Below, one piece after another: positions 111 to 63,860 of a DNA stretch of 63,860 bases (within the stretch, counting starts at the first letter, position 1; the number at the start of each line of letters is the position of its first letter). The notes under the pieces were generated by a model. The model was not told the DNA's origin and searched no databases. It saw only the letters and a program-made list of their open reading frames with translations. Source of the DNA: a virus; IMG/VR virus record IMGVR_UViG_3300045391_003291, positions 1 to 63,860 of that record; one strand, written 5' to 3'. A program made the translations under genes and the position numbers.

Positions 111-406
111 GTCTTCGCAGCCGGCTGCTTTTCAAGGATTGCGCGTGCCGCTGCGCTGCACGGAAGCAATTCGATAACTCCCAAGATGTAATGCAGCGGC
201 ACCTCGCATGCGACCTTTCCGCTTTTGATGCCGATCTGGCTAACTTCAGATAGAGAAAAAGCACCGCTCCAACTCCACAGGCGTCTGGATGCAGACAACG
301 TAATTCCACCGGTGTTGTCGACGTGTTCAACGGTACCGTAGTGAACGCCGGCATTGATAGTTCGGATGACACAGTATTGACCTACTGCAGGGTGTTTGTT
401 GCTCAT
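107..406 (-). CDS. hypothetical protein (99 aa)
   Basis: ORF track. Its stop overlaps the next start, and it lies in the leftward operon. Confidence 0.6.
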   Translation of the reverse strand: MSNKHPAVGQYCVIRTINAGVHYGTVEHVDNTGGITLSASRRLWSWSGAFSLSEVSQIGIKSGKVACEVPLHYILGVIELLPCSAAARAILEKQPAAKT

Positions 407-423
407 AAAATTAGTCCTTTGGG

Positions 424-564
424 CTACTCGAAGCCGGCAAACGACAGCAGGTTAATCAGAGCGCCTGCGCACCCCGATATCACCAGCCATCCGTTAAGAG
501 ACAAGGCGCCACCGATAGCGCAGGCGGCGCAGAAAACAGCTAGGGAGAGGCTGTATCGGCGCAT
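424..564 (-). CDS. small hydrophobic protein (46 aa)
   Basis: Internal ATG of ORF 424..690 with AAGGA 6 nt upstream. Sequence MRRYSLSLAVFCAACAIGGALSLNGWLVISGCAGALINLLSFAGFE has two hydrophobic segments. Confidence 0.35.
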   Translation of the reverse strand: MRRYSLSLAVFCAACAIGGALSLNGWLVISGCAGALINLLSFAGFE

Positions 565-749
565 GGTTTGTCCTTGACAGTTGATTCCGGTATGCAATAC
601 GGGCATACGACGATGACCCGTTGAAGGAAAGGTGAAAAAGGGAAGCCATATCTGTCCCAGAAATGTATCCCGCAGGTGCGGCACTCCCACATTCCACCAG
701 CAAGTATTTTGTCTGTGGTGATATGCAATTCACCTTTAACGGTGCTCAC
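540..749 (-). CDS. zinc-ribbon-like protein (69 aa)
   Basis: ORF track with GTG start and AGGA upstream. Paired CRTC ... CPYC motifs. Confidence 0.5.
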   Translation of the reverse strand: MSTVKGELHITTDKILAGGMWECRTCGIHFWDRYGFPFSPFLQRVIVVCPYCIPESTVKDKPCADTASP

Positions 750-766
750 GACTCACGTCCTTTGGG

Positions 767-1123
767 TTACAAGCGATTCATGAGGTCGAGAAACTCGGGA
801 TGCAGGTTGCCGTTATCGGCGAATACCTGAACCGGTTCGCATGGCCAGCCGTCGATGGCCTCAACGAACAGAGGCCACGGGTCGCGGCTGTTCATGATTC
901 TTTTGAGCTCAAGACGATGGCCGCGCGCCTCTACGTGCACGTTCGAAATAGTCAGCGCGCCGCTGTTCTGATCCTGCTGAATGTCGAAAGCTTCGCCTTC
1001 GCCCAATGTGTCGAACACGCGCAAGCCCGGTGTCGTCTCGCTCAGGATGTACAGGCGGCCGTAGCACTTCAGAAGATTGGATTCGTTGAACAGGTCGCGT
1101 GGTATGACTCGGTTGTAGCTCAT
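767..1123 (-). CDS. hypothetical protein (118 aa)
   Basis: Internal ATG (MSYNRVIPRDLFNE...) forms an ATGA overlap with the stop of 1120..1587. Confidence 0.65.
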   Translation of the reverse strand: MSYNRVIPRDLFNESNLLKCYGRLYILSETTPGLRVFDTLGEGEAFDIQQDQNSGALTISNVHVEARGHRLELKRIMNSRDPWPLFVEAIDGWPCEPVQVFADNGNLHPEFLDLMNRL

Positions 1124-1664: not shown

Positions 1665-2858
1665 TCAGGCCCTGCTAATCGGGATAGTTCGCCCTGTGGG
1701 CGCTACCTGATCCGTGGTGCATACCCAAAGCGTCGGAATGTCCACAACAGCCGGACCAGGGCCGTACAGGTCGGTCAGGTAGATAACGCCGGCGATACTC
1801 TGTGCGTCGTCCTCGCGTAGCTTTTTGGCCAGATCGAACACCGGACGGAAGTCCGTGCCGCCACCTCCCTTTGCCGTTGTGGGAAGCGTGCCGCCCGGCT
1901 CAATGGGATACGTCGCACATATAGCCGCGTCGCAGTCCACGACCAACAGGCTGGACGCTGGATGCTCGGCGCTGCAGTTCGAAATTGCTTCGTTAAACAT
2001 GGAAAGCGTTTGATCGTCGATCGAGCCCGAGGTATCCCGGCAGATCAAGATCAGTCCGGGAGACTCTGACGGACGGCGCCGGGGGTAGATTACACCCTGC
2101 CATGCATGGCGAGAGGGTGACCGCGTCCAATCCGACCGGCTGGGCCCTACCTGATTGATGAATTCGGCGAGCTCCTGACGCCAGTCGATAGGCTGATGCT
2201 TGATGCGCTCCAGCTGCCTTGCAAGGTCCGCCGGGATCGCGCCGCGGCCAAGTGCCTGCGCGGCCTGTGCCGCTTGGATAACGGCCTGCTCCCAATCCTG
2301 ACGGAGCTCCTGAGCGTCTTGTGCGGCCTTGTCGGGCGTCTGACCGGTGTCCGGCTTGGTGAAGGAGCCGCACGGGTTGTTGCCGCTGCCTGAGCCACTG
2401 CCGTCGCCGCCGTCGCCATCATCCTTGGGCAGTGAGTTGTAAATCTCCTCGCAGGACATCCCTTTGTATTGCAGATCGCAGCAGGCGCCTTTCGGCATTG
2501 TGATACCAGGAATGGGCGAGGACGTCTGTCCGGACAGTGTGAGGTTAATTTCATGATCACCTGCGATATTGCCAGCCCCATCCGCTGGCAGGCGCCACAG
2601 ATGGCCGTGTGCGCAATGCAGGGCCTCATGGAGCAGCACAAAACGTAGCTCCTCGTTACTCAGGGACTCGACGAAAGCGCCGTTGTAGATGATGCTGCGG
2701 CCGTCCGTGCACATCGTGCCGCCATGGCCTTTGAACTTGTCGTCGCGGATCGGATTTAGGCGAGACAGCAGCGCCCCATAAAAAGGCTGTTCTGACAGTG
2801 CCCACCAGCGCGCCCGGTCAATCTTCAGGCTGATTGCTTCGTCTTGCTTCGTGCTCAT
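1665..2858 (-). CDS. VWA-domain protein with an N-terminal zincin-like metallopeptidase domain (DUF2201-type architecture)
   Basis: HExxH in LLHEALHCAHGH. MIDAS-like DxSGS in ICRDTSGSID. Partnered with the AAA+ ATPase at 4124. Confidence 0.8.
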   Translation of the reverse strand: MSTKQDEAISLKIDRARWWALSEQPFYGALLSRLNPIRDDKFKGHGGTMCTDGRSIIYNGAFVESLSNEELRFVLLHEALHCAHGHLWRLPADGAGNIAGDHEINLTLSGQTSSPIPGITMPKGACCDLQYKGMSCEEIYNSLPKDDGDGGDGSGSGSGNNPCGSFTKPDTGQTPDKAAQDAQELRQDWEQAVIQAAQAAQALGRGAIPADLARQLERIKHQPIDWRQELAEFINQVGPSRSDWTRSPSRHAWQGVIYPRRRPSESPGLILICRDTSGSIDDQTLSMFNEAISNCSAEHPASSLLVVDCDAAICATYPIEPGGTLPTTAKGGGGTDFRPVFDLAKKLREDDAQSIAGVIYLTDLYGPGPAVVDIPTLWVCTTDQVAPTGRTIPISRA

Positions 2859-2859
2859 C

Positions 2860-3084
2860 TCAAATAGTCCTCGTATTCCACTGTTGAATTGCTCTGGACT
2901 TCACGCTGGCGCTTGATTCATTGCACCAGCCGTTACCGTCCTTTGTTGTCTTGACTTCAAGGCGGATACCGCAAGTACACGACACGATCGCCTCAAAGTT
3001 ATATCCGCAGCGCTCATCTGATCCGCTCGTTGTATGGATGCGCACGGGTTTTCCGCAAAGCGGGCAAGGCTTCATATCGTCCAT
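2860..3084 (-). CDS. Lar-family-like restriction alleviation protein (74 aa)
   Basis: MDDMKPCPLCG ... SCTCG ... AIQQWNTR matches the remembered Lar pattern (KPCPxCG, second Cys pair, C-terminal WNxR). The start was chosen just after the upstream stop. Confidence 0.55.
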   Translation of the reverse strand: MDDMKPCPLCGKPVRIHTTSGSDERCGYNFEAIVSCTCGIRLEVKTTKDGNGWCNESSASVKSRAIQQWNTRTI

Positions 3085-3088
3085 TACC

Positions 3089-3880
3089 TCACACCCCCAG
3101 CATGGAAAGAATGGACGCCGCCTTCGCGGCCGTTTGGTTGCGGGCTTGGTCATCTTCGCGCAGGGCTTCCGCGCTCAGGATGGTCAGCGGTGCCGCCGCA
3201 TCGGCAACCGCTTGCAGTTCCGGGATGCCGACAATGTCAAGATCAGGGACCAGGGCGACCACGTCGCGCAGCTGCTCGAATACGGATGCGTATAGCTTGC
3301 CGTCACTGGCGCAGCGGTCGCGCACGCGCTCCAGAGCTTCGGTAAGCCGCTCGCGCAGTTCATCTGATGCAGCCCGGGCCGACTCCGACAGCCACTCCGA
3401 CCACGCGCCATCAGTCGGGCAGGACAGGTAACGGACATTGAGTCCGAACTTTTCCGCGATAGCGGCCTGCGTCGGCCACATCGACGCATCGTACAAACCA
3501 TTGAGCCGGGCCGGAGCGGCTGCCGCCTCGCTGGCGTAGTCGGACAGGAAGCGGGACACGATGGCGTCATGCTCAGAGCGATAGCGGCGCATCATGTCGG
3601 AGTGCTCCAGATGCCGCGCCGCAGGGATCATGCGCATGCCGTCCTGCACAGACGGAAGGGAAAGGCGCCGATGGTCCGCATAGACGCTCTGGTGAAGGCT
3701 GGCGAGCTCCTGCAGGGCCGGATGGTTGCAGATGGTCACCAGGACGCGCGGGGCGTCGCTGTGGTGCTTCTGGCGGGCCGCGGCGGTTTCTTTCTTATGC
3801 AACTTGGTCGCGCGCCACATGCTGCAGCTGATCGTCGTCAGCATCGTACGGGCGGCAATGCCGGATACGTCGAAAGTCAT
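3089..3880 (-). CDS. hypothetical protein, possibly the DUF3150-like partner of AAA/VWA modules (263 aa)
   Basis: Internal ATG (MTFDVSGIAART...) with GAGGGG RBS. It sits between the AAA+ and VWA genes. The family assignment is from memory only. Confidence 0.45.
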   Translation of the reverse strand: MTFDVSGIAARTMLTTISCSMWRATKLHKKETAAARQKHHSDAPRVLVTICNHPALQELASLHQSVYADHRRLSLPSVQDGMRMIPAARHLEHSDMMRRYRSEHDAIVSRFLSDYASEAAAAPARLNGLYDASMWPTQAAIAEKFGLNVRYLSCPTDGAWSEWLSESARAASDELRERLTEALERVRDRCASDGKLYASVFEQLRDVVALVPDLDIVGIPELQAVADAAAPLTILSAEALREDDQARNQTAAKAASILSMLGV

Positions 3881-3956
3881 TTGAATCCCCTCTAAGGTTC
3901 GGATGATGCGGAGCGCATCTAGCTGCACCCAGTTGCCCAGGTGCAGCCCGCTGCGT

Positions 3957-4115
3957 TCACTCAATGTCGATTTGCCGACGCTCCGCCTCGTCTTTAGCAA
4001 GCTCTGCATAGTCAGAGCGGCCTGCCTCTGTTTCCTTGAGATAGACGCCACACACCTGATTAGCCGTGCATGCTCTCAAGTAGTCTTTGAATTCCTGACG
4101 GTCTTTAGAGGACAT
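3957..4115 (-). CDS. small hypothetical protein (52 aa)
   Basis: Internal ATG (MSSKDRQEFKDY...) of ORF 3957..4166, downstream of the AAA stop. Confidence 0.4.
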   Translation of the reverse strand: MSSKDRQEFKDYLRACTANQVCGVYLKETEAGRSDYAELAKDEAERRQIDIE

Positions 4116-4123
4116 GGCAGTGA

Positions 4124-5149
4124 TTAGATGAAAATGGCTTGATTTGCCGTGAACCACTGCACCCAATCCGGTTCCCCGCCCAGCTTGGCACCCAGCCTGC
4201 GAAACACGTCACGCGCCAACAGAGCACCGTAGACGCGCGGCATGCGTGCCAGATACTGAACGACGGCCCGGGTGTGCTCCGGCTTTGCTGCCATGCCTAC
4301 CATTGCGCAGACGAGGTAAAGCGCCTGCGGATCGGTCGGGATAATGGCGCCCTTGGGGTCCATGAATACGGCGTCGGGCGTAGGCACTTGCTCGGCCAGC
4401 TTGGCAAAGGCAAGAAACTCGGCGGCAGCCGGCTTGCCGATGGCTGCCGCTATGTCGGCCAGCTGCTGTAGACCATCCTTCCAGAGCTTTACGACTACTT
4501 CCCAGCTGCGGAAGTCCGGCATGCGGATAGACGGATCGGCGCAGGGCTTCCATGCGTGCAAGGTGCGGCCAGAGGTCGAGCGGTGCCACGCAATGACTTC
4601 GGGCGCCGCTTCCTGCTCAATCGCCCAATTCACCCAGTTGGAAACCTCGTCCTCCCACGTTCCCAGCATTACCCCGCCGGCCGGGTCATCGGTAGCACCA
4701 GGGGTCGGCAGCTGGAAGGCGAGGTCGAAGCGGGACCGGAGCGGCTCGCACAAGGCAGTAACGCCGGCCTTGTCGCCGGGCCGATTGGTGGCGCCGCAGA
4801 TCAACACGGATTCGGAGAGCTCGCCGGCATCAAACAAGCGCATCAATGCGGCCTGTACGTCCATCGGAGCTTGTCCAAGGTCGTCCAACAGTAGCAGGGT
4901 CGGCTCGTTTGTCGTCTTGAGATCGTTCAGCAGTTCCAGCGGTAGGGAACGCGTGACGCCGGCCCCGTGATCCGGGACAAGGCATCCGCCGAAGTCCACA
5001 CGCTCCGACAGACTGGCGCGCATGACGATCAAGCGGCGGCCTTCCTTGGCGGCAGCGGCCCGAAGGCGCGCAGTCTTGCCAGTCCCGGGAGGACCGACCA
5101 GAAGCACGCGGCGATCCGCCCCGATGTAGCGTTCGATAGTTGTTTGCAT
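4124..5149 (-). CDS. MoxR/CobS-like AAA+ ATPase (341 aa)
   Basis: Walker A in VGPPGTGKTA and Walker B in LLLLDDLG. GAGGGG RBS before MQTTIERY. Confidence 0.85.
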   Translation of the reverse strand: MQTTIERYIGADRRVLLVGPPGTGKTARLRAAAAKEGRRLIVMRASLSERVDFGGCLVPDHGAGVTRSLPLELLNDLKTTNEPTLLLLDDLGQAPMDVQAALMRLFDAGELSESVLICGATNRPGDKAGVTALCEPLRSRFDLAFQLPTPGATDDPAGGVMLGTWEDEVSNWVNWAIEQEAAPEVIAWHRSTSGRTLHAWKPCADPSIRMPDFRSWEVVVKLWKDGLQQLADIAAAIGKPAAAEFLAFAKLAEQVPTPDAVFMDPKGAIIPTDPQALYLVCAMVGMAAKPEHTRAVVQYLARMPRVYGALLARDVFRRLGAKLGGEPDWVQWFTANQAIFI

Positions 5150-5225
5150 CGTAGACCCCTCAAAAGGTTTGGATGGTGCGGAATGCACCCCGTAGAACCC
5201 GCAGCGCAGGCCCTACAGGCTGGAT

Positions 5226-5603
5226 TCAGGCAACAGGCTTGCGGGTGGCTGCGAGGGTGTTGCGAATGATCGTGAGCACGTCATCATTCGGCGGGATATC
5301 GCGGTGACGCATATTCTCCAAAGTCTGCAGACGGCCTTCAGCGATTTGCAGCGCAGCTACTAGCGCGTCGTAGTTGCTAGCCTTCGCTTGCAGCGCTTCC
5401 TGCAATTCGTCGCCTTCAAGCTCGTATTCTTCGAGCCCGCGGAGCTCGCCGCAGTCGTTGCACCAGCAGTCATCGTAGGTATTGCCGAGTACCCAGGCCT
5501 GTGCAATGGGGTTCCAAACGCTGTTCGCATCGTTGCCGCAATTGGTACTGCCGCACTGCGGGCAGCGGTAGCCGATCAGCTTGGGGGATGTGGTTGCGGT
5601 CAC
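5226..5603 (-). CDS. zinc-ribbon plus coiled-coil protein (125 aa)
   Basis: CPQCG ... CNDCG, followed by a helical C-terminal half. Confidence 0.6.
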   Translation of the reverse strand: MTATTSPKLIGYRCPQCGSTNCGNDANSVWNPIAQAWVLGNTYDDCWCNDCGELRGLEEYELEGDELQEALQAKASNYDALVAALQIAEGRLQTLENMRHRDIPPNDDVLTIIRNTLAATRKPVA

Positions 5604-5605
5604 GG

Positions 5606-5818
5606 CTACTTACTCCGGTTGAACAGCCACGTCAGCCAGGACCGGCGCACCGGCCGCACGGGCTCATCGATACGGGTAGGCGACAGGGTTACCAGCCCAT
5701 TCCGCCGCTCCTGCTCGCGCTGGTTCAGGGTGTCCCGCATTTGCCAGTTGGCGATGGCTTCTGATGTGCGCTCAAGGTCGCAGAGCAACTTAGTTTCGCT
5801 GTGGTGCTGTGTAGCCAT
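5606..5818 (-). CDS. hypothetical protein (70 aa)
   Basis: ORF track, with GAGG 8 nt upstream of the ATG at 5818. Confidence 0.55.
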   Translation of the reverse strand: MATQHHSETKLLCDLERTSEAIANWQMRDTLNQREQERRNGLVTLSPTRIDEPVRPVRRSWLTWLFNRSK

Positions 5819-5827
5819 GGGATTACC

Positions 5828-6007
5828 TCAGGTGAGCGGGAACATGCGCGCACAATAGCTGCGCAGGGCTTTGTATGCGATGCGGCGCCCGATCTTGCGA
5901 GCGATTGCCCGGAAGGTCGGCAGCCGCTGCCGTTGGAACTGTGCACGCTGCCAGCGCTCGCGCTCGATAGCGTCGGCCCAAGCTGTAACGGATGGCGGGT
6001 TGCTCAT
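5828..6007 (-). CDS. hypothetical protein (59 aa), first gene of the leftward operon
   Basis: Hand translation: MSNPPSVTAWADAIERERWQRAQFQRQRLPTFRAIARKIGRRIAYKALRSYCARMFPLT. It is below the ORF-track length cut-off. Confidence 0.5.
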   Translation of the reverse strand: MSNPPSVTAWADAIERERWQRAQFQRQRLPTFRAIARKIGRRIAYKALRSYCARMFPLT

Positions 6008-6073
6008 AACAGGCCCTCGAAGGTTCGGCGCGTGTCGGATGTCACGCGAGACACGAATATATGCGCGTCAACG

Positions 6074-6091
6074 AAACGTGTCAACACGTTT
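6074..6091. promoter_or_regulatory. Perfect palindrome AAACGTGT-CA-ACACGTTT (candidate operator) in a divergent control region
   Basis: Read directly. It lies between the divergent gene starts at 6007 and 6156. Confidence 0.5.
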
Positions 6092-6102
6092 AGCACAAAC
6101 CC

Positions 6103-6131
6103 TTGAATGGCAATGCGCGCTGTCCTATCGT
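6103..6131 (+). promoter_or_regulatory. Candidate sigma70 promoter TTGAAT-N17-TATCGT for the paralog island
   Basis: Hexamers and 17-nt spacer counted by hand. It sits 25 nt upstream of the ATG at 6156. Confidence 0.4.
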
Positions 6132-6155
6132 CGAAGCCAAAGGGGGATGGTGGTC

Positions 6156-6512
6156 ATGTACGAAAGAATCGACCGAGTGCCCGGAAATAGCATTGGCGAG
6201 CAACAAAAAAGATTGTTTGCCAGCATCAAGGCTGGCGGCTGCAGTGCTGTTCGTAAGCTCATGTGTGGCCAGCACATCGACAATATGTCGAACACCGAAA
6301 AACTAGGTTTGTTGCAGATAATGGGTGTGCAACTTCGTACCCAGCTCCCGGAGTGTGACATCCACACGAAAACTTACACCATGGTCATTTATGTAAGTAG
6401 CGGGGTCGATATGACACAGGAAATTGACCGTCTGACCGTGACGGAAATGGGCGGTCTTGTTACAAGGACGCTATCTCTAAGCAAGCTCCAGGAGCTCGCG
6501 GCCCATCTATGA
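6156..6512 (+). CDS. paralog family member a (118 aa)
   Basis: Internal ATG after the GGGGG RBS. Motifs HIDNMSNTEKLGLLQIMGV and QEIDRLTVTE. Confidence 0.65.
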   Translation: MYERIDRVPGNSIGEQQKRLFASIKAGGCSAVRKLMCGQHIDNMSNTEKLGLLQIMGVQLRTQLPECDIHTKTYTMVIYVSSGVDMTQEIDRLTVTEMGGLVTRTLSLSKLQELAAHL

Positions 6513-7051
6513 AACGCCATCTCTACCAATCAGCCATGGAGCAACGTTTCGACGCGCTGAAGGCCTCCAGGGAGGCCGGCAGACAGGGCATTCAGAAGCT
6601 ACTGAAGGGCTACCATATCGATAGCCTGACCAAGGTCCAACAGACAGGGATATGCGTCTTACTTGGCTTGGATACGGTCGTTAAAGGGACCTTTGTCCGT
6701 CTAGTCGACCCGCCGAGCTTCGAACATGAAATCGGCGCACTGACAATCAGGTTTGCATGGCATGTGGAGGTATTAAAAACAGATCGCCTTCAAGCCATGC
6801 TTGCGCCTGATTTTGAGCCAAAGCCGCTTAAGAACGTTTGGACTATGGATGTAGGCCGCTCTATGGTTTGGTTTAGGGTGGTTACAGCAGACGGACGCGT
6901 GATGTCAATGCAAAGCCCTCACGTGTACCCCAAGCAATATCCGCACACTAGTATCGAAATAAAGGCTCGACAGTTGGGTAAGAGTAAGGCTCTAGAGCAA
7001 TTAACGATCGGTATGATTGATCGAATCAGATCGGATATCGACCGTGAGTAA
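6509..7051 (+). CDS. paralog family member b (180 aa)
   Basis: ATGA overlap. Motifs HIDSLTKVQQTGICVLLGL and HEIGALTIRF. Confidence 0.7.
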   Translation: MKRHLYQSAMEQRFDALKASREAGRQGIQKLLKGYHIDSLTKVQQTGICVLLGLDTVVKGTFVRLVDPPSFEHEIGALTIRFAWHVEVLKTDRLQAMLAPDFEPKPLKNVWTMDVGRSMVWFRVVTADGRVMSMQSPHVYPKQYPHTSIEIKARQLGKSKALEQLTIGMIDRIRSDIDRE

Positions 7052-7385
7052 TTGGGATGTCGTATTTGTTATGGATGCTGCAGAGTTGATCGGGCGAATA
7101 ACTAAGAAATCGGCAAGTGCACGAAAGCGTGAAATTAATAAACTCGCTACGGAATGCATCATTGCGATACTGCGCGGCAAAGAAGTAAAACAAATCGATC
7201 CGCGAAGCGTTTCTGCTCTTATCAAATCCACAATGCTTGTAAACGCAAACACTATAAAAATATCGATTGATCAGCTTGAATTTATCTTCATGAGCAAACC
7301 CGTCGCTCGCCTGTCCCTATGGGATTGCCAGATCGAGTTACAAAGATACAAACACAGGCCTATATTTAAGGAAATCTCGCAATGA
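7044..7385 (+). CDS. divergent paralog c (113 aa; an alternative ATG at 7017 gives 122 aa)
   Basis: GTG in frame with ORF 7017..7385. Weak motif IDQLEFIF. Confidence 0.5.
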   Translation: MSNWDVVFVMDAAELIGRITKKSASARKREINKLATECIIAILRGKEVKQIDPRSVSALIKSTMLVNANTIKISIDQLEFIFMSKPVARLSLWDCQIELQRYKHRPIFKEISQ

Positions 7386-7747
7386 TCCCCCTGTTTCCGA
7401 TCCGCGACGGCTTCCCCATTCACGAACTTCGCAACCGTGGGGCGCTGGTGATCGATGACATCGTTAAGAGTGGCGCTCATATAAGCAGAATGAGCAATTC
7501 CGAACTGGTAGCCCTCTATGTCGCCATTGGGGGCCCGTACGGTGTAGAACGAGGGTATTTGATGCCTCTAACGAAAGTAGATCTAGATCAAGAACTGGGG
7601 TGTCTTGTTGTAGTAGAAAACGGCCGAGCTCGCCGCTTCACTTACGCGCAAATGAAGGAGTGCGCAGATAAAGCTAGAAGAGAGAGGGAAGTAAAAAACA
7701 GTAGGAACCTTTTCCGTATAGGCAATGATCGCCCATGGATGTACTGA
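7382..7747 (+). CDS. paralog family member d (121 aa)
   Basis: ATGA overlap. Motifs HISRMSNSELVALYVAIGG, QELGCLVVVE and FTYAQM. Confidence 0.7.
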   Translation: MIPLFPIRDGFPIHELRNRGALVIDDIVKSGAHISRMSNSELVALYVAIGGPYGVERGYLMPLTKVDLDQELGCLVVVENGRARRFTYAQMKECADKARREREVKNSRNLFRIGNDRPWMY

Positions 7748-7796
7748 CGTTGCAACTGTATAGGGTCAAGTCTATTCTGAGCCTAGAGACGCAAAA

Positions 7797-7816
7797 CCCG
7801 CCATAAGGCGGGTTCT
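7797..7816 (+). terminator. Hairpin CCCGCC-ATAA-GGCGGG followed by TTCT
   Basis: Read directly, 50 nt after the stop at 7747. The U tract is weak. Confidence 0.5.
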
Positions 7817-7926
7817 ACGCTCCAGATGATGAGCATCTGAATTCTGACGTGTGACGGCACGGCAGCGGCGCGCGGCGAAATTCTCGCCCACGCTTCAAGC
7901 CTCGTCAACAGTAGCGAGGTTTGAGA

Positions 7927-8160
7927 ATGCCAAAACGATCACCCATCCCGACCGCTGACGAGATCAGAGGACCGAGCACGCCCGTTCACCATTACAGCCG
8001 ATTGACGGTGCTGGCGAACGAAGCCGGACGCTTCTTCGTGGGCAAGGTCGCTTTTATGCTGATGACGGACGGCGGCAATACCTCGGTGCAGATCAGTAGC
8101 AGGACGTGGGACACGCGCCAAGCCGCGCAGGATGCACTTGATGGCGAGTTCTTCGTGTGA
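7927..8160 (+). CDS. hypothetical protein (77 aa; a TTG at 7921 is also possible), weakly paralog-like
   Basis: ORF track. The segment HHYSRLTVLANEA resembles family motif 2. Confidence 0.5.
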   Translation: MPKRSPIPTADEIRGPSTPVHHYSRLTVLANEAGRFFVGKVAFMLMTDGGNTSVQISSRTWDTRQAAQDALDGEFFV

Positions 8161-8603
8161 GAACCCAGTTTTACGAAATCTGTTTGGTCGTTGATCTATC
8201 GGCTGATATCAACCTTGCGGTTATGCGCCGGCTAAAGGATCTATATTTTGACGGCCGCCGCGCACTTAAGAAGCTGTGCGAATGGACGCCGATAGAGAGT
8301 TTGTGTGAGCAGGATCAGTTAGCTATTGCGGCCGTCTGTGGCGTTCCACTGGTTTGGACGGCGGTCCCGCAAAGATTGGTCTACATATCTCCGGATAGTG
8401 ATTACCGATTTGAACATGAGTTCGACAGGCTGACTGTGTTTTTTTCAAAGGAATACAGAACATTCAGTCACGCACAAATGCTCGCAATGCATGAGCGTAC
8501 CGCCATCGTGGCGCCGCGCCAGCTTGATTGCCTGATTTACAGCAGCCTACGTCACCGTCTGCTCGTTAAAACCTCACCTCAACGAAACGCGTTATCGCCC
8601 TAG
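8157..8603 (+). CDS. paralog family member f (148 aa)
   Basis: GTGA overlap. Motifs IESLCEQDQLAIAAVCGV, HEFDRLTVFF and FSHAQM. Confidence 0.65.
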   Translation: MRTQFYEICLVVDLSADINLAVMRRLKDLYFDGRRALKKLCEWTPIESLCEQDQLAIAAVCGVPLVWTAVPQRLVYISPDSDYRFEHEFDRLTVFFSKEYRTFSHAQMLAMHERTAIVAPRQLDCLIYSSLRHRLLVKTSPQRNALSP

Positions 8604-8844
8604 ACCCGCAGGTCTGGTGCGAACCACAGAGCACCACGGAAACCGGCACCGTATCCAGCCCAGCCGCGCCCTACCCCCAGGCGCCCTAAACTCGCAAGCG
8701 GCGAGCAAGGACAAACGGTCGAACACGGGAAACGAAGCCCGCGCACCGCCACACAAAGGCGGCCAGACCGCAATACGGCACCGCTTCCGCGCAAAAACCC
8801 CTACGCGCCTCGGGGTTTGCCTCAGATTTGTCCAGATCAAAGAC

Positions 8845-8883
8845 TTATCCACAGACAAACCGCAGTTATCCACACAATCCACA
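8845..8883 (+). promoter_or_regulatory. Cluster of DnaA-box-like 9-mers: TTATCCACA (8845-8853), TTATCCACA (8866-8874), CAATCCACA (8875-8883)
   Basis: Two exact matches to the TTATCCACA consensus, 21 nt apart and in the same orientation, plus one 7/9 copy. Confidence 0.6.
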
Positions 8884-8946
8884 GCTACCAGGGAAGCAGC
8901 CAAGCGCTCTACACTGACGACACATCGTCACACCAGAGCGCCGACA

Positions 8947-9537
8947 ATGGATCAACTCCCGCAGACACAAGGCAAGCCGTCAACCGTCACAAAGCGGCCC
9001 GATGATCTGCCGTATCGCTACCAACCGCCCAAGTTAAAGCGCATCCCGCGCAACGTCCCACTTGGTAGCAAGCCAGACCACGAAGCCCAGATTCTGCAAG
9101 CCATCGAATGCGGTCAGACCATGCATGAGATAGCCGAACAGATCGGACGCGATGTCTCCATACTCTCAAGATGGCTCGCCGATCCACAAAGAGCAGCAAA
9201 GGCGAAAGAGTCGCGCCGGCTTCAGGCCGTGTACTGGGATGAGCTCGCGGAAAGGACGATTAAAGAGTTGCCCTCAAACGCGACACCAGCGGCAATGCTC
9301 CGCGCACGTGAACTTGCATCGCATTACCGCTGGCGCGCCAAGTCCATTGCCCCGCATGACTACGGCGACAGGCCGCTGATAGATGCCGAGCAGGAGGCAC
9401 AGCGTCAGGCTCAGGCACTGAACGGAGACACGGCCCGCCTCGTCCTTGGTGGCATCCTTGCCGCCATCGGACTGCAGGTCTCAGAGCTCCCCAAGGACAG
9501 AGCAGGCAGAGTAATCGATCACGATTCAACAACTTAG
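8947..9537 (+). CDS. HTH protein, candidate small terminase subunit (196 aa)
   Basis: Internal ATG (MDQLPQTQGK...). HTH-like segment QTMHEIAEQIGRDVSILSRW. The C-terminal ARELASHYRWRAKSIAPHDYGD resembles the TerS motif (...KWxxxKxxPKxYGD). Confidence 0.5.
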   Translation: MDQLPQTQGKPSTVTKRPDDLPYRYQPPKLKRIPRNVPLGSKPDHEAQILQAIECGQTMHEIAEQIGRDVSILSRWLADPQRAAKAKESRRLQAVYWDELAERTIKELPSNATPAAMLRARELASHYRWRAKSIAPHDYGDRPLIDAEQEAQRQAQALNGDTARLVLGGILAAIGLQVSELPKDRAGRVIDHDSTT

Positions 9538-9584
9538 CCTTGTGACAGCCGGATATTGAGGTTCCCTCTACGATTGTTGACATA

Positions 9585-9613
9585 GCTAGCCGGCCCATCT
9601 GACGCCGGCTAGC
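9585..9613 (+). terminator. Perfect 10-bp hairpin GCTAGCCGGC-N9-GCCGGCTAGC
   Basis: Read directly, 48 nt after the stop at 9537. There is no U tract. Confidence 0.4.
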
Positions 9614-9771: not shown

Positions 9772-9800
9772 TTCATCAAGTGACGTTCATCTGTCACACT
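9772..9800 (+). promoter_or_regulatory. Promoter/operator module copy A (TTCATC-N2-GTGAC-N8-GTCAC; -10-like CACACT)
   Basis: Same architecture and spacing as the copies at 10286 and 10807. It ends 12 nt before the ATG at 9812. Confidence 0.4.
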
Positions 9801-10285: not shown

Positions 10286-10314
10286 TTGAACGTGTGACGC
10301 TTCCGCGTTACAGT
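10286..10314 (+). promoter_or_regulatory. Promoter P1: TTGAAC-N17-TACAGT with embedded GTGAC-N8-GTTAC
   Basis: Hexamers and spacer counted by hand. It is near-identical to P2 (shared GTGTGACG......CGTTACAGTGC). Confidence 0.6.
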
Positions 10315-10806: not shown

Positions 10807-10835
10807 TTGCGTGTGTGACGGCACATCGTTACAGT
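10807..10835 (+). promoter_or_regulatory. Promoter P2: TTGCGT-N17-TACAGT with embedded GTGAC-N8-GTTAC
   Basis: Counted by hand; a paralog of P1. Confidence 0.6.
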
Positions 10836-12701: not shown

Positions 12702-12777
12702 GCAGCCGTAGCTCAGTTGGTAGAGCGGCAGCCTTCCAAGCTGTCTGTCGCGGGTTCGAGCCAAGCCGGCTGCTCCA
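12702..12777 (+). tRNA. tRNA-Gly(UCC)-like, 76 nt with encoded CCA and a T stem with only 3 of 5 pairs
   Basis: Hand-drawn cloverleaf: acceptor GCAGCCG/CGGCTGC, D arm GCTC-AGTTGGTA-GAGC, anticodon arm GCAGC-CTTCCAA-GCTGT, T arm GCGGG-TTCGAGC-CAAGC, discriminator T. Confidence 0.6.
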
Positions 12778-13812: not shown

Positions 13813-13873
13813 AAAGCGACGACACGGGCATCCACTGGCGGGGATGCTCTGAAGTTGAAATAGACTACGTTGT

Positions 13874-13891
13874 GTGACACCATGCCGTCAC
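13874..13891 (+). promoter_or_regulatory. Operator module copy D (GTGAC-N8-GTCAC) at the 5' end of the recombinase gene
   Basis: Read directly; part of the 7-bp palindrome GTGTGAC-N8-GTCACAC. Confidence 0.45.
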
Positions 13892-13909
13892 ACCATCGCG
13901 GAAACTCCA

Positions 13910-14623
13910 GTGAAGCAAGCCATCAGCTATCTCCGTGTCAGTACCGACAAGCAAGGCATCTCAGGGCTCGGGATTGAAGCCCAGCGCCACGCGGTCGAGC
14001 AGATGTGCGCACAGCGCGGGTACCGACTCATCGAAGAGTTCGTAGAGGCTGATAGCGGCCGCAGGAACGATCGACCTCAGCTGCAGCGTGCACGGGCTAT
14101 GGCGCGCGCCGCCGGCGCCGTACTGGTCGTTGCAAAGCTGGATCGCCTGGCCCGTGACGTCGACATGATCCGTTCGATCATGGCCAGCAAAGAGCAGGTT
14201 GTGTTCTGCGACTTCCCTCAGATTCCGGACGGACCCATGGGTGAGATGATGATCACCCTGATGGCAGCCTTTGCCGAGTTCGAGTCGAACTGCATCAGCA
14301 AGCGCACCAAAGACGCCATGCAGGCGGCCAAGAAGCGCGGCCAGAAGTTCGGCAACCCGGAGGCCCTGGCCAGGTGGAGGAGGGGGCGTAAGATCGACGT
14401 CTCTCGCGCCAACGAGGCCAGGCAGGCTATCGCACAGCAGAAGATCAACGACGTGGAGCCTGTGATCCAGGACCTTCGTATGAAAGGAATCACGACGCTC
14501 CGTGGCATTGCTTCAATGCTTAACTTCAAAGGAATCAAGTCACCAAGCGGAAGAGATTGGAAAGCCGAAAGTGTGCGGCGTGTGCTGCGCGCCATCCCTG
14601 ATGTTACAACCACCATGCAGTAG
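13910..14623 (+). CDS. small serine recombinase (resolvase/invertase-size, 237 aa; 249 aa if the GTG at 13874 is used)
   Basis: N-terminal VKQAISYLRVSTDKQ (catalytic Ser motif), VVAKLDRLARD, and a C-terminal HTH-like ITTLRGIASMLN. Confidence 0.85.
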   Translation: MKQAISYLRVSTDKQGISGLGIEAQRHAVEQMCAQRGYRLIEEFVEADSGRRNDRPQLQRARAMARAAGAVLVVAKLDRLARDVDMIRSIMASKEQVVFCDFPQIPDGPMGEMMITLMAAFAEFESNCISKRTKDAMQAAKKRGQKFGNPEALARWRRGRKIDVSRANEARQAIAQQKINDVEPVIQDLRMKGITTLRGIASMLNFKGIKSPSGRDWKAESVRRVLRAIPDVTTTMQ

Positions 14624-15273: not shown

Positions 15274-16800
15274 GTGGACCAGATGGCTCAAATCCTGGCC
15301 ACACTTCCACAGGAAGTGGTCAGACAGATCCCGGCGGACTGGCTCAAGCTTTCTCCAACTGAGCTCGTCACCAAGCTGACCGCTCACATCCAGACGCAGG
15401 AAAAGAAAAACAGGCTGATCAATTTCAAGCCGTTCCCGAAGCAGATGGAGTTCTACCGGCACGGGCTTACCCATCGGGAAAGGCTATTCCGCGCCATCAA
15501 CCAGGTCGGCAAGACCATGGGCGCAGCGGTCGAGACGGTCTACCACCTGACTGGGAATTATCCGAACTGGTGGCCAGGTATCCGGTTTGTGAACGCTACC
15601 CGCGGCTGGGTGATGTCGGAGTCGATGCAGTTCTCTCGAGACGCAGCGCAGAAGCTGTTGCTCGGGGAAAGCCCTGAGGAATGGGGCACTGGCCTTCTGC
15701 CAGCGGCATCGATCAAGAAGATCGTGCGCGCCAGCCACTCGGTTCAGGACGCCGTGGACACCCTGCGCGTGAAGCACATCAGCGGAGGTGTCAGCACCCT
15801 GGTGTTCAAGTCGGCTGAAGTCGAGCAGAACAAGCTCGGCGGCGACACGCTGCATTTCGCCTGGATGGACGAGGAGCCTCCGTACGGTCACTACGAGGAG
15901 GTCTATACAAGAACCAACGTCCACAAAGGACCCGTATACACAACCTTCACCCCGTTGAAGGGCGCTACACAGCTGGTCGTAGAGCTCATCGATAAGGCCA
16001 AGCTGGCCGGCTCGAGCGTCGCTGACATCCGCTGGACCATCGACGACGAGTCGATCTACAGCGATGCCGACAAGGAGGCGATGAAGCTTAAGTACGCCAA
16101 CTCATCCGACAAGGACGCCCGTCTCTACGCTGAGCCGACGCGTGGTTCAGGTTCTGTTTTCCAGTCGATCAACGAGGATTCGATCAAGTACCGCCACATC
16201 GATATCCCGGATCACTGGTACCGCATCTGCGGAATGGACTTCGGCATCAAGGACCCTACCTGCCTTGTCTACATCGCTCACGATCGTGACAACGATGTGT
16301 ACTACCTGTACGACGCCTACGGACAGACGGACAAGCCAGCGGCGGTGCACTACGAGGCCTGGAAGTCGAGGGGCGAGCATATCCCCGTGGCATGGCCGGC
16401 AGACGGCCTGCAGCGCGGAAAGGCAGACGGCATTCAGCTCAAGCGCGTGTACGAAGGCTTGGGGATGTACATGCTGTCGGATCCAGCGATGCTCCCGGAG
16501 ACGAACGCCAGGGGAGAGAACAATCGCAGTAGGACCTCGGTTGAAGCGAGTCTCGGCGACCTGATCGAATTGATGCAACAAGGCCGCTTCAAGGTTGCTG
16601 CCCACCTGGAACCGTGGTGGAGAGAATTCAAAGCCTACTTCCGCAAGAAGGACGGCAAACTCAATGATGCCGACAACCATTTCATCGACGCCACGCGCTA
16701 TGCCTTAATGATGGAAATGCAGGGTGCAGGCGTACAGGGTGGACGATATGAGAAACTGCGTTACACCAGAAACAGCAGTTTCCGTTCGCGTTATGCATAG
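15274..16800 (+). CDS. terL: terminase large subunit
   Basis: Walker A-like NQVGKT, Walker B-like FAWMDEEP, and nuclease-region motifs GMDFG and HFIDATRYAL. GGAGG RBS. Followed by the portal gene. Confidence 0.9.
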   Translation: MDQMAQILATLPQEVVRQIPADWLKLSPTELVTKLTAHIQTQEKKNRLINFKPFPKQMEFYRHGLTHRERLFRAINQVGKTMGAAVETVYHLTGNYPNWWPGIRFVNATRGWVMSESMQFSRDAAQKLLLGESPEEWGTGLLPAASIKKIVRASHSVQDAVDTLRVKHISGGVSTLVFKSAEVEQNKLGGDTLHFAWMDEEPPYGHYEEVYTRTNVHKGPVYTTFTPLKGATQLVVELIDKAKLAGSSVADIRWTIDDESIYSDADKEAMKLKYANSSDKDARLYAEPTRGSGSVFQSINEDSIKYRHIDIPDHWYRICGMDFGIKDPTCLVYIAHDRDNDVYYLYDAYGQTDKPAAVHYEAWKSRGEHIPVAWPADGLQRGKADGIQLKRVYEGLGMYMLSDPAMLPETNARGENNRSRTSVEASLGDLIELMQQGRFKVAAHLEPWWREFKAYFRKKDGKLNDADNHFIDATRYALMMEMQGAGVQGGRYEKLRYTRNSSFRSRYA

Positions 16801-61103: not shown

Positions 61104-61622
61104 ATGTGTCTGACGATTGAGGAATTCCAGTCTGAGGGTCGCGTGATGGGCCGCTTCCTGGTCGACGGCACGCCGATCGGAGAGGCTGAGAAGGTGAACG
61201 GCGGGTACTGGCTACTCCCGCGTGCGAAGAACCTACGGGACCAGGACGAGGCCGCCAAGGCCATGCTCGAAGGCTACCTCGTGAAGATCAGGGCGAAGGA
61301 GAGGAAGTGTCTGGAGCTCCTGGAATCGATCGGCGTGCGCAAGCAACAGCCGAAAGCACTGTTCGAATTCTCGTTGCCACCGTTCATCAAAGCCGAATCA
61401 TGGAACGGGTTTGTGGAGATGAGGAAGAGGATCAAGAAGCCACTCACCCCGCGCGCTACGGACATGCTGATCAAGAAGCTCAAGACCTTTCACGACGAGA
61501 GAATCGACGTCAACGACTGCCTCGATCGATCGACGTTCAAGAACTGGACTGACGTGTACAGGCCCGAAGGCGATAAGCCTCAGCATCAGATCGTTGAACT
61601 CGATTCAGGGGATGAGACGTGA
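61104..61622 (+). CDS. replication-associated protein, candidate helicase loader/initiator-like (172 aa)
   Basis: GTGA-coupled to dnaB. C-terminal PPFIKAESWNGFVEMRKRIKKPLTPRATDMLIKKLKTF resembles a motif I recall from phage replication/DnaT-like proteins. Confidence 0.5.
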   Translation: MCLTIEEFQSEGRVMGRFLVDGTPIGEAEKVNGGYWLLPRAKNLRDQDEAAKAMLEGYLVKIRAKERKCLELLESIGVRKQQPKALFEFSLPPFIKAESWNGFVEMRKRIKKPLTPRATDMLIKKLKTFHDERIDVNDCLDRSTFKNWTDVYRPEGDKPQHQIVELDSGDET

Positions 61623-63004
61623 GTCTATCGGCAACACCGAAGCATCCTCCTTACTCAATGGAGGGAGAGCAGTCTGTACTTGGCGGCCTGATGCTGGATA
61701 ACGAGGCGTGGTACGACGTTTCGTCGATCCTCACGAAGGAAGACTTCTATACCCAAGACCACCGGTTAATTTTCTCTCAGATCGAGCAGCTGATTACTTC
61801 AGGTAGTCCTTGCGACTTCCTTACGCTCGCAGAGCACATGCGGAGCAACGGCACTCTCAAGGAAGCTGGAGACATCTCCTACCTTGGGACGCTATCAGCC
61901 GATACGCCTAGTGCCGCCAACGTTCGCGCATACGCTGAAATCGTTCGAGAGAGATCCGTTCTTCGATCGATGATTGCGATCGGAAACCAGATTGCGGACA
62001 TGGGCTATAACCCTGACGGCCGGTCTCCGAAAGAGTTGCTGGCGGAAGCCGAGCTCTCACTCAGTAATGTCCAGGTGCGAAAACGTTCCACTGTTAAATC
62101 GATGTCGGAGATGGTGGAAATAGGTCTCGGATACGTTGAGGAGGCCAAGAAACGAAGAGAGAGCGGGGAGAAGCTCGGTATCGAGTGGGGTATCCCTTGG
62201 TTCGATAACCGAACTGGAGGGATGCAGCCGGCTCAGTTCATCATCATCGCCGCCAGGCCGTCTTTGGGTAAGACTGCTCTGTTGAATCAGATCGCCATTC
62301 ACGCGGCCAAGAACAACAACCCAGGGATCATCTTCAGCTTGGAGATGAACGACGCTCAGCTTGCCATTCGCAGCATGGCTCACGAAGCGCAGGTGAATGT
62401 AACCAGGCTTAAGTTCGGATCAACGGATGAGGTGAACGAGGCGTCTGCTGCTGCGGTCAAGATGATGAACTACCCGCTTTACTTCGATACCGAGAGCTAC
62501 GATTTGCACAGCATCGTTGCCACCCTTGCGAACAAGAAGCGCACAGCGGGTATCAAGTGGGCTGCGATAGATCACATCGGCTTGATCGAGATGCCAGGCA
62601 ACCTCAAGGACGTCGAGCGTCTCACGATCATCTCTCGCCGTCTCAAGAAGCTATCGAAGCAGTTGCAGATCCCGATCATCGCGCTCAGCCAGCTCAACCG
62701 GGGCGTGGAGAAAGAGAAGCGATCACCGAAGCTGTCGGACCTCAGGGACTCTGGAAGCTTGGAGCAGGATGCCGACATCGTCGTTTTCATCCACACTGAT
62801 TCGCCAGATGGGACCATACCTCTACCCATCCAGTTTTACCTATCCAAGAATCGCGACGGGCGCCGCGGCAGCAGCAAGAAGGAATTCGAATTCGTAGGTT
62901 CTACGCAGACATACCGCAATCGTCCTGTTGAAGATCAGCAAGAGGACGACAACCATCCGCCGGTGCCTACACAAGCGCCGCTCAGTTATGGAGAGGACTA
63001 CTGA
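61619..63004 (+). CDS. dnaB: replicative DNA helicase DnaB
   Basis: PPYSMEGEQSVLGGLMLDN N-terminus, Walker A ARPSLGKT, and IIALSQLNRGVEKEKRSPKLSDLRDSGSLEQDADIVVFIH. Confidence 0.92.
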   Translation: MSLSATPKHPPYSMEGEQSVLGGLMLDNEAWYDVSSILTKEDFYTQDHRLIFSQIEQLITSGSPCDFLTLAEHMRSNGTLKEAGDISYLGTLSADTPSAANVRAYAEIVRERSVLRSMIAIGNQIADMGYNPDGRSPKELLAEAELSLSNVQVRKRSTVKSMSEMVEIGLGYVEEAKKRRESGEKLGIEWGIPWFDNRTGGMQPAQFIIIAARPSLGKTALLNQIAIHAAKNNNPGIIFSLEMNDAQLAIRSMAHEAQVNVTRLKFGSTDEVNEASAAAVKMMNYPLYFDTESYDLHSIVATLANKKRTAGIKWAAIDHIGLIEMPGNLKDVERLTIISRRLKKLSKQLQIPIIALSQLNRGVEKEKRSPKLSDLRDSGSLEQDADIVVFIHTDSPDGTIPLPIQFYLSKNRDGRRGSSKKEFEFVGSTQTYRNRPVEDQQEDDNHPPVPTQAPLSYGEDY

Positions 63005-63569: not shown

Positions 63570-63860
63570 AGAATTGTTCTCATCATTGAGTGAGTGTAAA
63601 GCGGTGCATGAACCTGCAAGAAGGTAGTTGCATCGGTTACGCCGTTGGCAACAAGAAGCTCAGCCGCGTCGCGCCATTCACCTATGGTGGTATCAGGTTG
63701 TAGATGGGTGTCGCCATAGCCATTGCCATTGCCATTGCCATCGCCATTGCCATCGCCATCGCCATAGCCATAGCCATAGCCATCGCCATCGCCATTGCCA
63801 TCGCCATTGCCATCGCCATCGCCATAGCCATAGCCATTGCCATCGCCATCGCCATTGCCA
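63566..63860 (-). CDS. 3' part of the wrap-around Gly-X repeat protein gene
   Basis: In-frame reading ...GYGDTHLQPDTTIGEWRDAAELLVANGVTDATTFLQVHAPLYTHSMMRTIL, stop at 63568-63566. Open to the window end. Confidence 0.6.
   Translation of the reverse strand, partial: GNGDGDGNGYGYGDGDGNGDGNGDGDGYGYGYGDGDGNGDGNGNGNGYGDTHLQPDTTIGEWRDAAELLVANGVTDATTFLQVHAPLYTHSMMRTIL
63710..63860 (-). repeat. Hexanucleotide tandem repeat (GCCATN)n: 24 GCCATN units plus the flanking Gly-Asp (GAC) codon pair at 63710-63715. The last 8 units duplicate the window start.
   Basis: Read directly. Together with 1-95 it gives 32 units in the closed circle. Confidence 0.95.

Follow-up and report, generated by a model that had tools for sequence, protein, structure and literature searches.

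A low-GC island in a phage of an unsampled lineage carries four anciently diverged paralogs of an orphan protein family

The island and its six genes

At positions 6156-8603 of the viral record IMGVR_UViG_3300045391_003291 (the window hereafter being the whole stretch of 63,860 bp that we analyzed, a JGI metagenome contig) lies an island of six small plus-strand genes, here designated A to F, four of which encode divergent members of a single protein family. Gene A (6156-6512) encodes a family member of 118 amino acids (aa), or 121 aa if translation begins at the ATG at 6147 that the JGI annotation calls; an AGGGGG Shine-Dalgarno sequence lies upstream of it, and its stop codon overlaps the start of gene B in the motif ATGA. 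Gene B (6509-7051) encodes the longest member (180 aa), whose C-terminus is extended by about 80 aa that the other members lack. It is followed by gene C (7044-7385), a 113-aa orphan open reading frame (ORF) that overlaps both B and D, has the lowest GC content of the island (41.8%) and is also called as a gene in the JGI and Logan contigs. Gene D (7382-7747), the third family member, encodes 121 aa and is preceded by an AAGGAA Shine-Dalgarno sequence. A strongly structured spacer of 179 nucleotides (nt) at 7748-7926 then divides the array into an A-D and an E-F part. Gene E (7927-8160), a 77-aa orphan ORF, has a native-like GC content of 59% and a GC content at third codon positions (GC3) of 0.72, and its stop codon overlaps the annotated GTG start of gene F (8157-8603). 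Gene F encodes the fourth family member, which yielded the best structure model; its length is 148 aa as annotated, with an uncertain start, as the internal ATG at 8223 would give a protein of 126 aa.

Start and stop codons overlap at A/B, B/C, C/D and E/F, and the genes probably form two translationally coupled blocks, A-B-C-D and E-F. The gene calls of JGI and Logan agree with these ORFs, save for the start of A at ATG 6147, so that the six ORFs listed by an earlier, sequence-only reading of this DNA stand with that one reservation. Their coding status is further supported by matches among the paralogs at the protein level with almost no similarity at the DNA level, by the overlapping starts and stops, by the Shine-Dalgarno sites and by the agreement of the two independent pipelines.

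Four of the six proteins are paralogs

Pairwise comparison of the island proteins by Smith-Waterman alignment, in which each score was set against 1000 shuffles, revealed a clear relationship among the products of A, B, D and F. For the pairs A-B (z=8.1), A-D (z=7.2), A-F (z=7.5) and B-F (z=12.2), none of the 1000 shuffles reached the observed score, and the corresponding Gumbel P values range from 1e-7 to 5e-5 for these four strong pairs, while the pairs B-D (z=3.4, 14/1000 shuffles) and D-F (z=3.2, 8/1000 shuffles) gave weaker signals. A profile built from the four proteins recovered in hmmsearch only these same four among the 954 six-frame ORFs of the window, and B/F was the sole paralog pair that BLAST found across the whole genome.

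The sequence-only reading had proposed an array of four to six paralogs sharing three collinear motifs. The motif strings that it quoted are all present, and in the same order, in A, B, D and F, and the similarity among these four exceeds chance (z of 7-12 for four pairs and about 3 for two), but it does not extend to C and E. For C, the comparisons with the other island proteins gave Smith-Waterman z scores of at most 0.8, an hmmsearch E value of 20 and an hhalign P value of 0.45; for E, comparison with A, B, C and D gave z scores of at most 0.2, no hmmsearch match and an hhalign P value of 0.40 (the hhalign values, here and below, being single runs). The comparison of E with F gave z=2.9, a score reached by 17/1000 shuffles (uncorrected). 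Shuffle, hmmsearch and hhalign tests thus led us to reject C and E as family members and, since they are not detectably related to the other four, the array is best described as four paralogs interleaved with two unrelated orphan ORFs.

Identity among the paralogs is about 20-32% over the aligned stretches, and the sole trace of paralogy at the DNA level is a 26-nt stretch of 73% identity. Because so little similarity is left in the proteins and almost none in the DNA, the duplications must be old and do not reflect a recent expansion. By these sequence comparisons, the four genes form a single orphan family whose members diverged long ago.

Homology searches and predicted structure

None of the six proteins could be placed in a family of Pfam, PHROGs, NCBIfam or PADLOC (best E=0.04-0.4, far below the cut-offs), and a sequence search of the PDB gave a best E value of 0.13, which bears out the earlier statement that no family could be recognized; nor did these curated libraries yield a match to a housekeeping phage family. 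A word-indexed profile search of 5.8 billion clustered proteins and an exhaustive hmmsearch of 1.84 billion representatives each returned the four self-hits only. Likewise, tblastn with B, C, E and F as queries gave nothing in 50,697 phage genomes, and a degenerate-pattern scan of IMG/VR returned no relatives beyond the query itself or chance matches.

The AlphaFold2 model of F, built like that of A on an alignment of four sequences, reached a predicted local distance difference test (pLDDT) score of 78-92 in its core (residues 20-115), except at residues 71-80 (61). Its elements are, in order, a long helix (16-41), then after a short turn another helix (51-60), a beta meander of five strands (65-104) and a last helix (105-113). 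Accordingly modeled, the family core comprises about 100 residues, in which the turn is predicted to carry the H-I-D-S-L-S motif and the beta meander the E-I-D-R-L-T-V motif. Structure prediction followed by Foldseek, the route by which the sequence-only reading had suggested that a fold might be recognized, produced no fold match for F in the PDB (best E=0.94) or in BFVD (best E=0.42), all probabilities being 0.3 or lower; the non-significant matches include several small SH3-like beta domains, as well as small DNA-binding beta domains such as Sso7d, LytTR and the C-terminal domain of HIV integrase.

The only invariant residues of the family are G, I, G, E and L, a set that looks structural and not catalytic. 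The proteins are soluble and neutral to basic, with an isoelectric point (pI) of 7.7-9.6 and a net charge of +0.7 to +7, and they contain no transmembrane segments (signal peptides were not scanned). Since DNA mimics of the Ocr/ArdA type are strongly acidic, we rejected this class for the family.

Composition of the island and its bracketing repeat

The island has a GC content of 50.5%, compared with 57.3% for the genome (z=-3.2), which places it in the lowest 0.1% of all 2448-bp windows and makes it the 2.4-kb stretch of the genome that is poorest in GC. The dip claimed by the sequence-only reading is thus real when computed over the full region, but it is modest, and the island is AT-rich only in relative terms; the 38-45% GC quoted there applies around gene C (41.8%) but not to the rest. 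The composition is uneven within the island as well, the four paralogs lying at about 50% GC and gene E at 59.4%. GC3 follows the same pattern, with 0.52-0.58 for the paralogs and 0.43 for C, against 0.65-0.85 for core genes. As E and the spacer that precedes it are native-like in composition, the cassette itself appears to be a mosaic.

The edges of the low-GC stretch coincide with the two copies of a 14-nt direct repeat, TCAACGAAACG(T/C)GT, which occurs exactly twice in the 63.9 kb, with 0.05 occurrences expected by chance. The left copy, TCAACGAAACGTGT, lies at 6068-6081 on the plus strand, and the right copy, TCAACGAAACGCGT, at 8579-8592 on the same strand, inside the last 25 nt of gene F. 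Taken together, the direct repeat and the composition make the strongest case that the cassette came in, or is able to move, as one piece. Horizontal acquisition, which had been put forward earlier, fits this evidence, and acquisition en bloc is a plausible account of both the distinct composition and the bracketing repeat.

Control region, internal spacer and downstream region

The ORF map and the sequence define a divergent intergenic control region (6008-6146) that separates the island from a leftward operon of small genes and a MoxR-like AAA/VWA cassette, the island starting 140 bp from that operon. A near-consensus sigma-70-like promoter, TTGACA-17-TATATT (11/12 matches), lies on the minus strand at 6084-6056 and points leftward, away from the island. 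Its -35 hexamer is overlapped by an 8+2+8 inverted repeat, AAACGTGTCAACACGTTT (6074-6091; AAACGTGT-CA-ACACGTTT), which corresponds to the perfect palindrome of the sequence-only reading, is unique in the genome (0.02 expected by chance in the window) and constitutes a candidate operator. The left arm of this palindrome and the left copy of the 14-nt direct repeat overlap, and the right copy of the repeat carries a similar half-site. The first gene of the leftward operon (5828-6007, minus strand) encodes a 59-aa protein that looks helix-turn-helix (HTH)-like by eye and has no family match; since the inverted repeat overlaps the promoter of this gene, the arrangement suggests an autoregulatory switch. 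Before gene A, a possible weak rightward promoter, TTGAAT-17-TATCGT, was recognized by eye on the plus strand at 6103-6131 (8/12 matches).

The spacer between D and E folds more stably than shuffled sequence on both strands (z=-5.6 for the plus and -4.7 for the minus strand). It contains a hairpin with 13-nt arms (7790-7819), and a further hairpin covers the Shine-Dalgarno sequence of E, while a canonical U-tract terminator was found on neither strand. The spacer may encode a small antisense RNA, or may act as a regulatory or processing element. On its minus strand, a promoter-like sequence, TTGACG-17-GAGAAT (7908-7880), is followed by three hairpins, and the spacer also gave an NrrF-like Rfam match (E=0.24); all Rfam matches in the region 5500-9600 were sub-threshold.

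Downstream of the island, the DnaA-box cluster reported by the sequence-only reading consists of two perfect TTATCCACA boxes at 8845-8853 and 8866-8874, whose starts are 21 bp apart. Both are found some 240 bp beyond gene F, in a 343-bp spacer that precedes an Sf6-TerS-like/HTH_23 gene (8947-9537; below the Pfam cut-off). The genome has no other perfect DnaA box, and its genes for the O-like initiator and DnaB are located elsewhere (61-63 kb). The TerS-like gene is followed by ten small orphan ORFs (ORFans), and the spacers of this ORFan block (8.9-13.9 kb) contain five copies of an inverted repeat, GTGTGAC-N8-GT(C/T)ACA(C/G), at 8912-8933, 9778-9799, 10292-10313, 10813-10834 and 13872-13893. 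Three of the copies end 12-16 nt before the start codons at 8947, 9812 and 13910, and the repeat might define a regulon, either as an operator or as an RNA hairpin. Within the island, this motif is represented by a partial copy inside the coding sequence of A (6353) and by a 12-nt half-site in the D-E spacer (7849-7860). As no site of the GTGTGAC-N8-GTCAC type is found upstream of gene A, the island looks like a separate regulatory unit.

The phage genome and a distant locus beside a related ATPase

At its two ends the contig has an exact overlap of 51 bp, which lies within a hexanucleotide repeat and implies that a circular assembly was broken inside that repeat; given this overlap, the window most likely represents a complete, circularly assembled phage genome. 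The tandem repeat itself occupies positions 1-96 and 63711-63860 (units CCATAG/TCGCCA, 16 and 25 copies) and, judged by eye, its translation would consist of Gly-X dipeptides. Protein family scans recognized TerL (15274-16800), and portal and major capsid proteins are also recognizable among the proteins of the window. The replication and recombination modules are lambdoid in type, with an O-like replication initiator and a DnaB-type helicase at 61104-63004 and a long leftward operon at 47-60 kb that encodes Erf, a RecE-like exonuclease, NinB and a DNA methyltransferase. Inside the ORFan run between the island and TerL lie a tRNA-Gly(TCC) gene (12702-12777) and a gene for a small serine recombinase of the resolvase type (237 aa; 13910-14623), the only recombinase found.

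The phage belongs to a previously unsampled lineage and is distant from every reference phage. The best reference matches reach 40% identity for TerL and 27% for the capsid protein, megablast of the island region (5800-8800) found no DNA match in INPHARED, and searches of IMG/VR and JGI metagenomes that started from TerL, from the TerS-like protein and from the ATPase described below gave no close or useful relatives. The other contigs that carry the island genes (L001 and L002) are pieces of the same phage from other samples and are 99.99-100% identical to it, so that there is no polymorphism to analyze. The source samples are JGI 3300032421, SRR9009769 and SRR9009773.

Left of the control region, the minus strand encodes a MoxR-like AAA ATPase, a 320-aa protein and a DUF2201 (VWA/metallopeptidase) protein (1665-5188). 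The ATPase has more than 300 homologs at 59-77% identity, and this three-gene cassette is all that the window has in common with four long contigs (L007-L010); being the sole shared part, it behaves as a mobile module. The short contigs that carry ATPase homologs contain no member of the island family, with the possible exception of one, a 3.4-kb Logan contig (L011, from SRR21686419) with an ATPase 72% identical to that of our phage and an operon divergent from it. Two ORFs of that operon align to the motif-1 region, the most conserved part of the family, G-x-x-h-x-x-L-h-x-G-x-H-x-x-S-L-S followed by a helix. One of them, a 68-aa fragment, gave a Smith-Waterman z of 6.75 against A, and both obtained profile scores above those of all 500 shuffles and hhalign P values of 0.0066 and 0.015. 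Between the two ORFs (236-946, minus strand) lies a gene that matches phrog_1008, 'DNA methyltransferase' (E=2e-24), and no Pfam model. A repeated remote search with the L011 sequences added returned query proteins, including P0125 of L011 itself, or matches at chance level. The similarity is suggestive, and the chances that the two ORFs are very distant members of the family, in the position that the island has in our phage, are in our view about evenly balanced.

Functional interpretation

Our findings lead us to propose, tentatively and with low confidence, that the four paralogs are accessory proteins that have no enzymatic function and act by binding targets in the host. In this proposal, the four proteins would have been gained en bloc, each would bind a host (or phage) macromolecule, and the four copies would have diverged toward different targets or target variants, with expression starting from the divergent control region at 6008-6146. 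Their most likely role would be in host interaction, by way of counter-defence or host takeover. What points to this role is that the proteins are small, non-enzymatic in appearance and restricted to one lineage, that their surfaces are variable, and that they are encoded in an island of atypical composition beside a control region that bears an operator. The methyltransferase-like neighbor in L011 possibly adds weak guilt by association in the same direction.

Several observations weigh against host-directed binding. No match and no fold ties the family to a defence system, a host factor or a time of expression, and the structural data rest on models from a four-sequence alignment, that of A being poor and unusable (pLDDT 58.6). 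The strong promoter of the control region is directed away from the island, and the promoter scan reported no plus-strand promoter at 6008-6146, the site found by eye lying below its threshold. The position of the island, upstream of the small-terminase-like and structural genes, could make it part of a middle or late unit. As regards lifestyle, the proteins scanned included no recognizable integrase, CI-like repressor or partition protein. In an unbiased search that covered 1088 ORFs of 11 loci, the two L011 ORFs reached E values of only 0.7 and 2.9. Finally, the basic pI would also suit binding to nucleic acids, and together with the adjacency to the DnaA boxes and the TerS-like gene it fits a nucleic-acid-binding role equally well.

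One alternative, to which we give a limited but real chance, is that the island is cargo of the kind known as morons in lambdoid phages, a concept of Hendrix and colleagues: a low-GC cassette expressed by itself, possibly in a prophage or carrier state, that would serve superinfection exclusion or host fitness and not lytic takeover. The island resembles such elements as an insert of foreign composition, unlike that of the neighboring genes, placed between conserved modules just upstream of the packaging genes, bracketed by repeats and possibly equipped with its own promoter, and a strong hairpin follows the A-D block. The O-like initiator, DnaB, Erf, the RecE-like exonuclease and NinB are lambdoid-type replication and recombination modules that are typical of temperate phages. 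Against this, the genes expected of a temperate phage are missing from the scans, as noted above, and the sole recombinase is of the 237-aa resolvase type. The hairpin at 7790-7819 lacks a U-tract on either strand, no canonical terminator was found, and the promoter of the island is a weak by-eye candidate. Moreover, many exclusion proteins are membrane proteins, a class to which proteins devoid of transmembrane segments do not conform (with the reservation on signal peptides given above), and the island comprises six genes with internal paralogy instead of one or two.

We view with similar reserve the possibility that the paralogs are nucleic-acid-binding regulators, or replication or packaging factors, that act near the DnaA boxes and the TerS-like gene or on the palindrome and the 14-nt repeats. 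Besides the pI of 7.7-9.6, this would accommodate the location of the island between an operator-like palindrome on one side and the DnaA boxes and an Sf6-TerS-like HTH gene on the other, the overlap of the left repeat with a palindrome arm and the similar half-site in the right repeat, as well as the presence of small DNA-binding beta domains (Sso7d, LytTR and the HIV integrase domain) among the non-significant Foldseek matches. However, all of these fold matches have probabilities of at most 0.3, no HTH or other DNA-binding family was found in Pfam, PHROGs or NCBIfam, and hhalign showed no relationship between the family and either neighbor, the TerS-like or the 59-aa protein; it would also be unusual for one operon to contain the same regulator in four divergent versions.

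A bolder version of host-directed binding holds that the paralogs represent a new fold and a new family of inhibitors. They would make up an arsenal of four, gained en bloc, with every copy neutralizing a different host defence or host factor, and the family would be conserved beside the mobile MoxR-AAA/VWA genes and a methyltransferase-like gene in at least one distant high-GC phage, that of L011. We regard this as unlikely. Less likely still is that the paralogs are subunits of one hetero-oligomeric complex, kept at fixed ratios by translational coupling, and not effectors that each work by themselves. The start/stop overlaps described above would provide such coupling, and the conserved positions are mostly hydrophobic or glycine in an otherwise variable sequence, but the members range from 118 to 180 aa and have different tails. 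That the motif similarity arose by chance, or that the ORFs are not genes, is highly improbable: the family is known from four sequences only and has no homologs elsewhere, but no shuffle reached the score of any of the four strong pairs, the three motifs keep the same order, ORFs of this length would not be expected readily in DNA of 42-50% GC, their starts and stops overlap, and independent pipelines agree on the gene calls.

Comparison with known systems and significance

Among the nearest parallels to the island are accessory or anti-defence islands and takeover modules of phages. The former include acr-aca operons and early-gene clusters found via shared regulatory sequences (PMC11065993). 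Our island resembles islands of the acr-aca type as a run of small orphan genes of atypical composition that extends from a promoter region with a candidate inverted-repeat operator, next to which a small protein that looks HTH-like by eye, the 59-aa protein, is encoded. In contrast to them, the operator here overlaps the leftward promoter, and the 59-aa gene is divergent from the island and not downstream of it; Pfam and PHROGs gave no homolog of an Acr, Aca or other anti-defence protein for the six proteins or the 59-aa protein. The small orphan genes of such anti-defence islands are fast-evolving. Host-takeover modules, such as that of Bacillus phage SPO1, the pre-early genes of T5 and the class I genes of T7, are likewise clusters of many small, tightly packed, non-enzymatic and lineage-specific genes of unknown function that are co-transcribed. 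These modules lie at a defined end of the genome and their early promoters are mapped, and paralogy is not among their defining features.

Islands of orphan genes are the rule in phage genomes, and our results add one more accessory island of this familiar type, with a new orphan family in it, and leave current understanding unchanged. In mycobacteriophages, small, non-essential and lineage-restricted orphan genes of unknown function grouped into 'phamilies' fill much of the phage genome (PMC7474061). The family described here differs from these in being present in four copies in one genome while being absent from the 50,697 reference phage genomes. Should its members be confirmed as inhibitors directed at the host, the repertoire of counter-defence or takeover would gain a new family and perhaps also a new fold, and the four copies would represent a natural case of one scaffold retargeted four times within a single genome. 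As a well-delimited and clonable 2.5-kb cassette from an unsampled lineage, the island is a candidate for functional screens.

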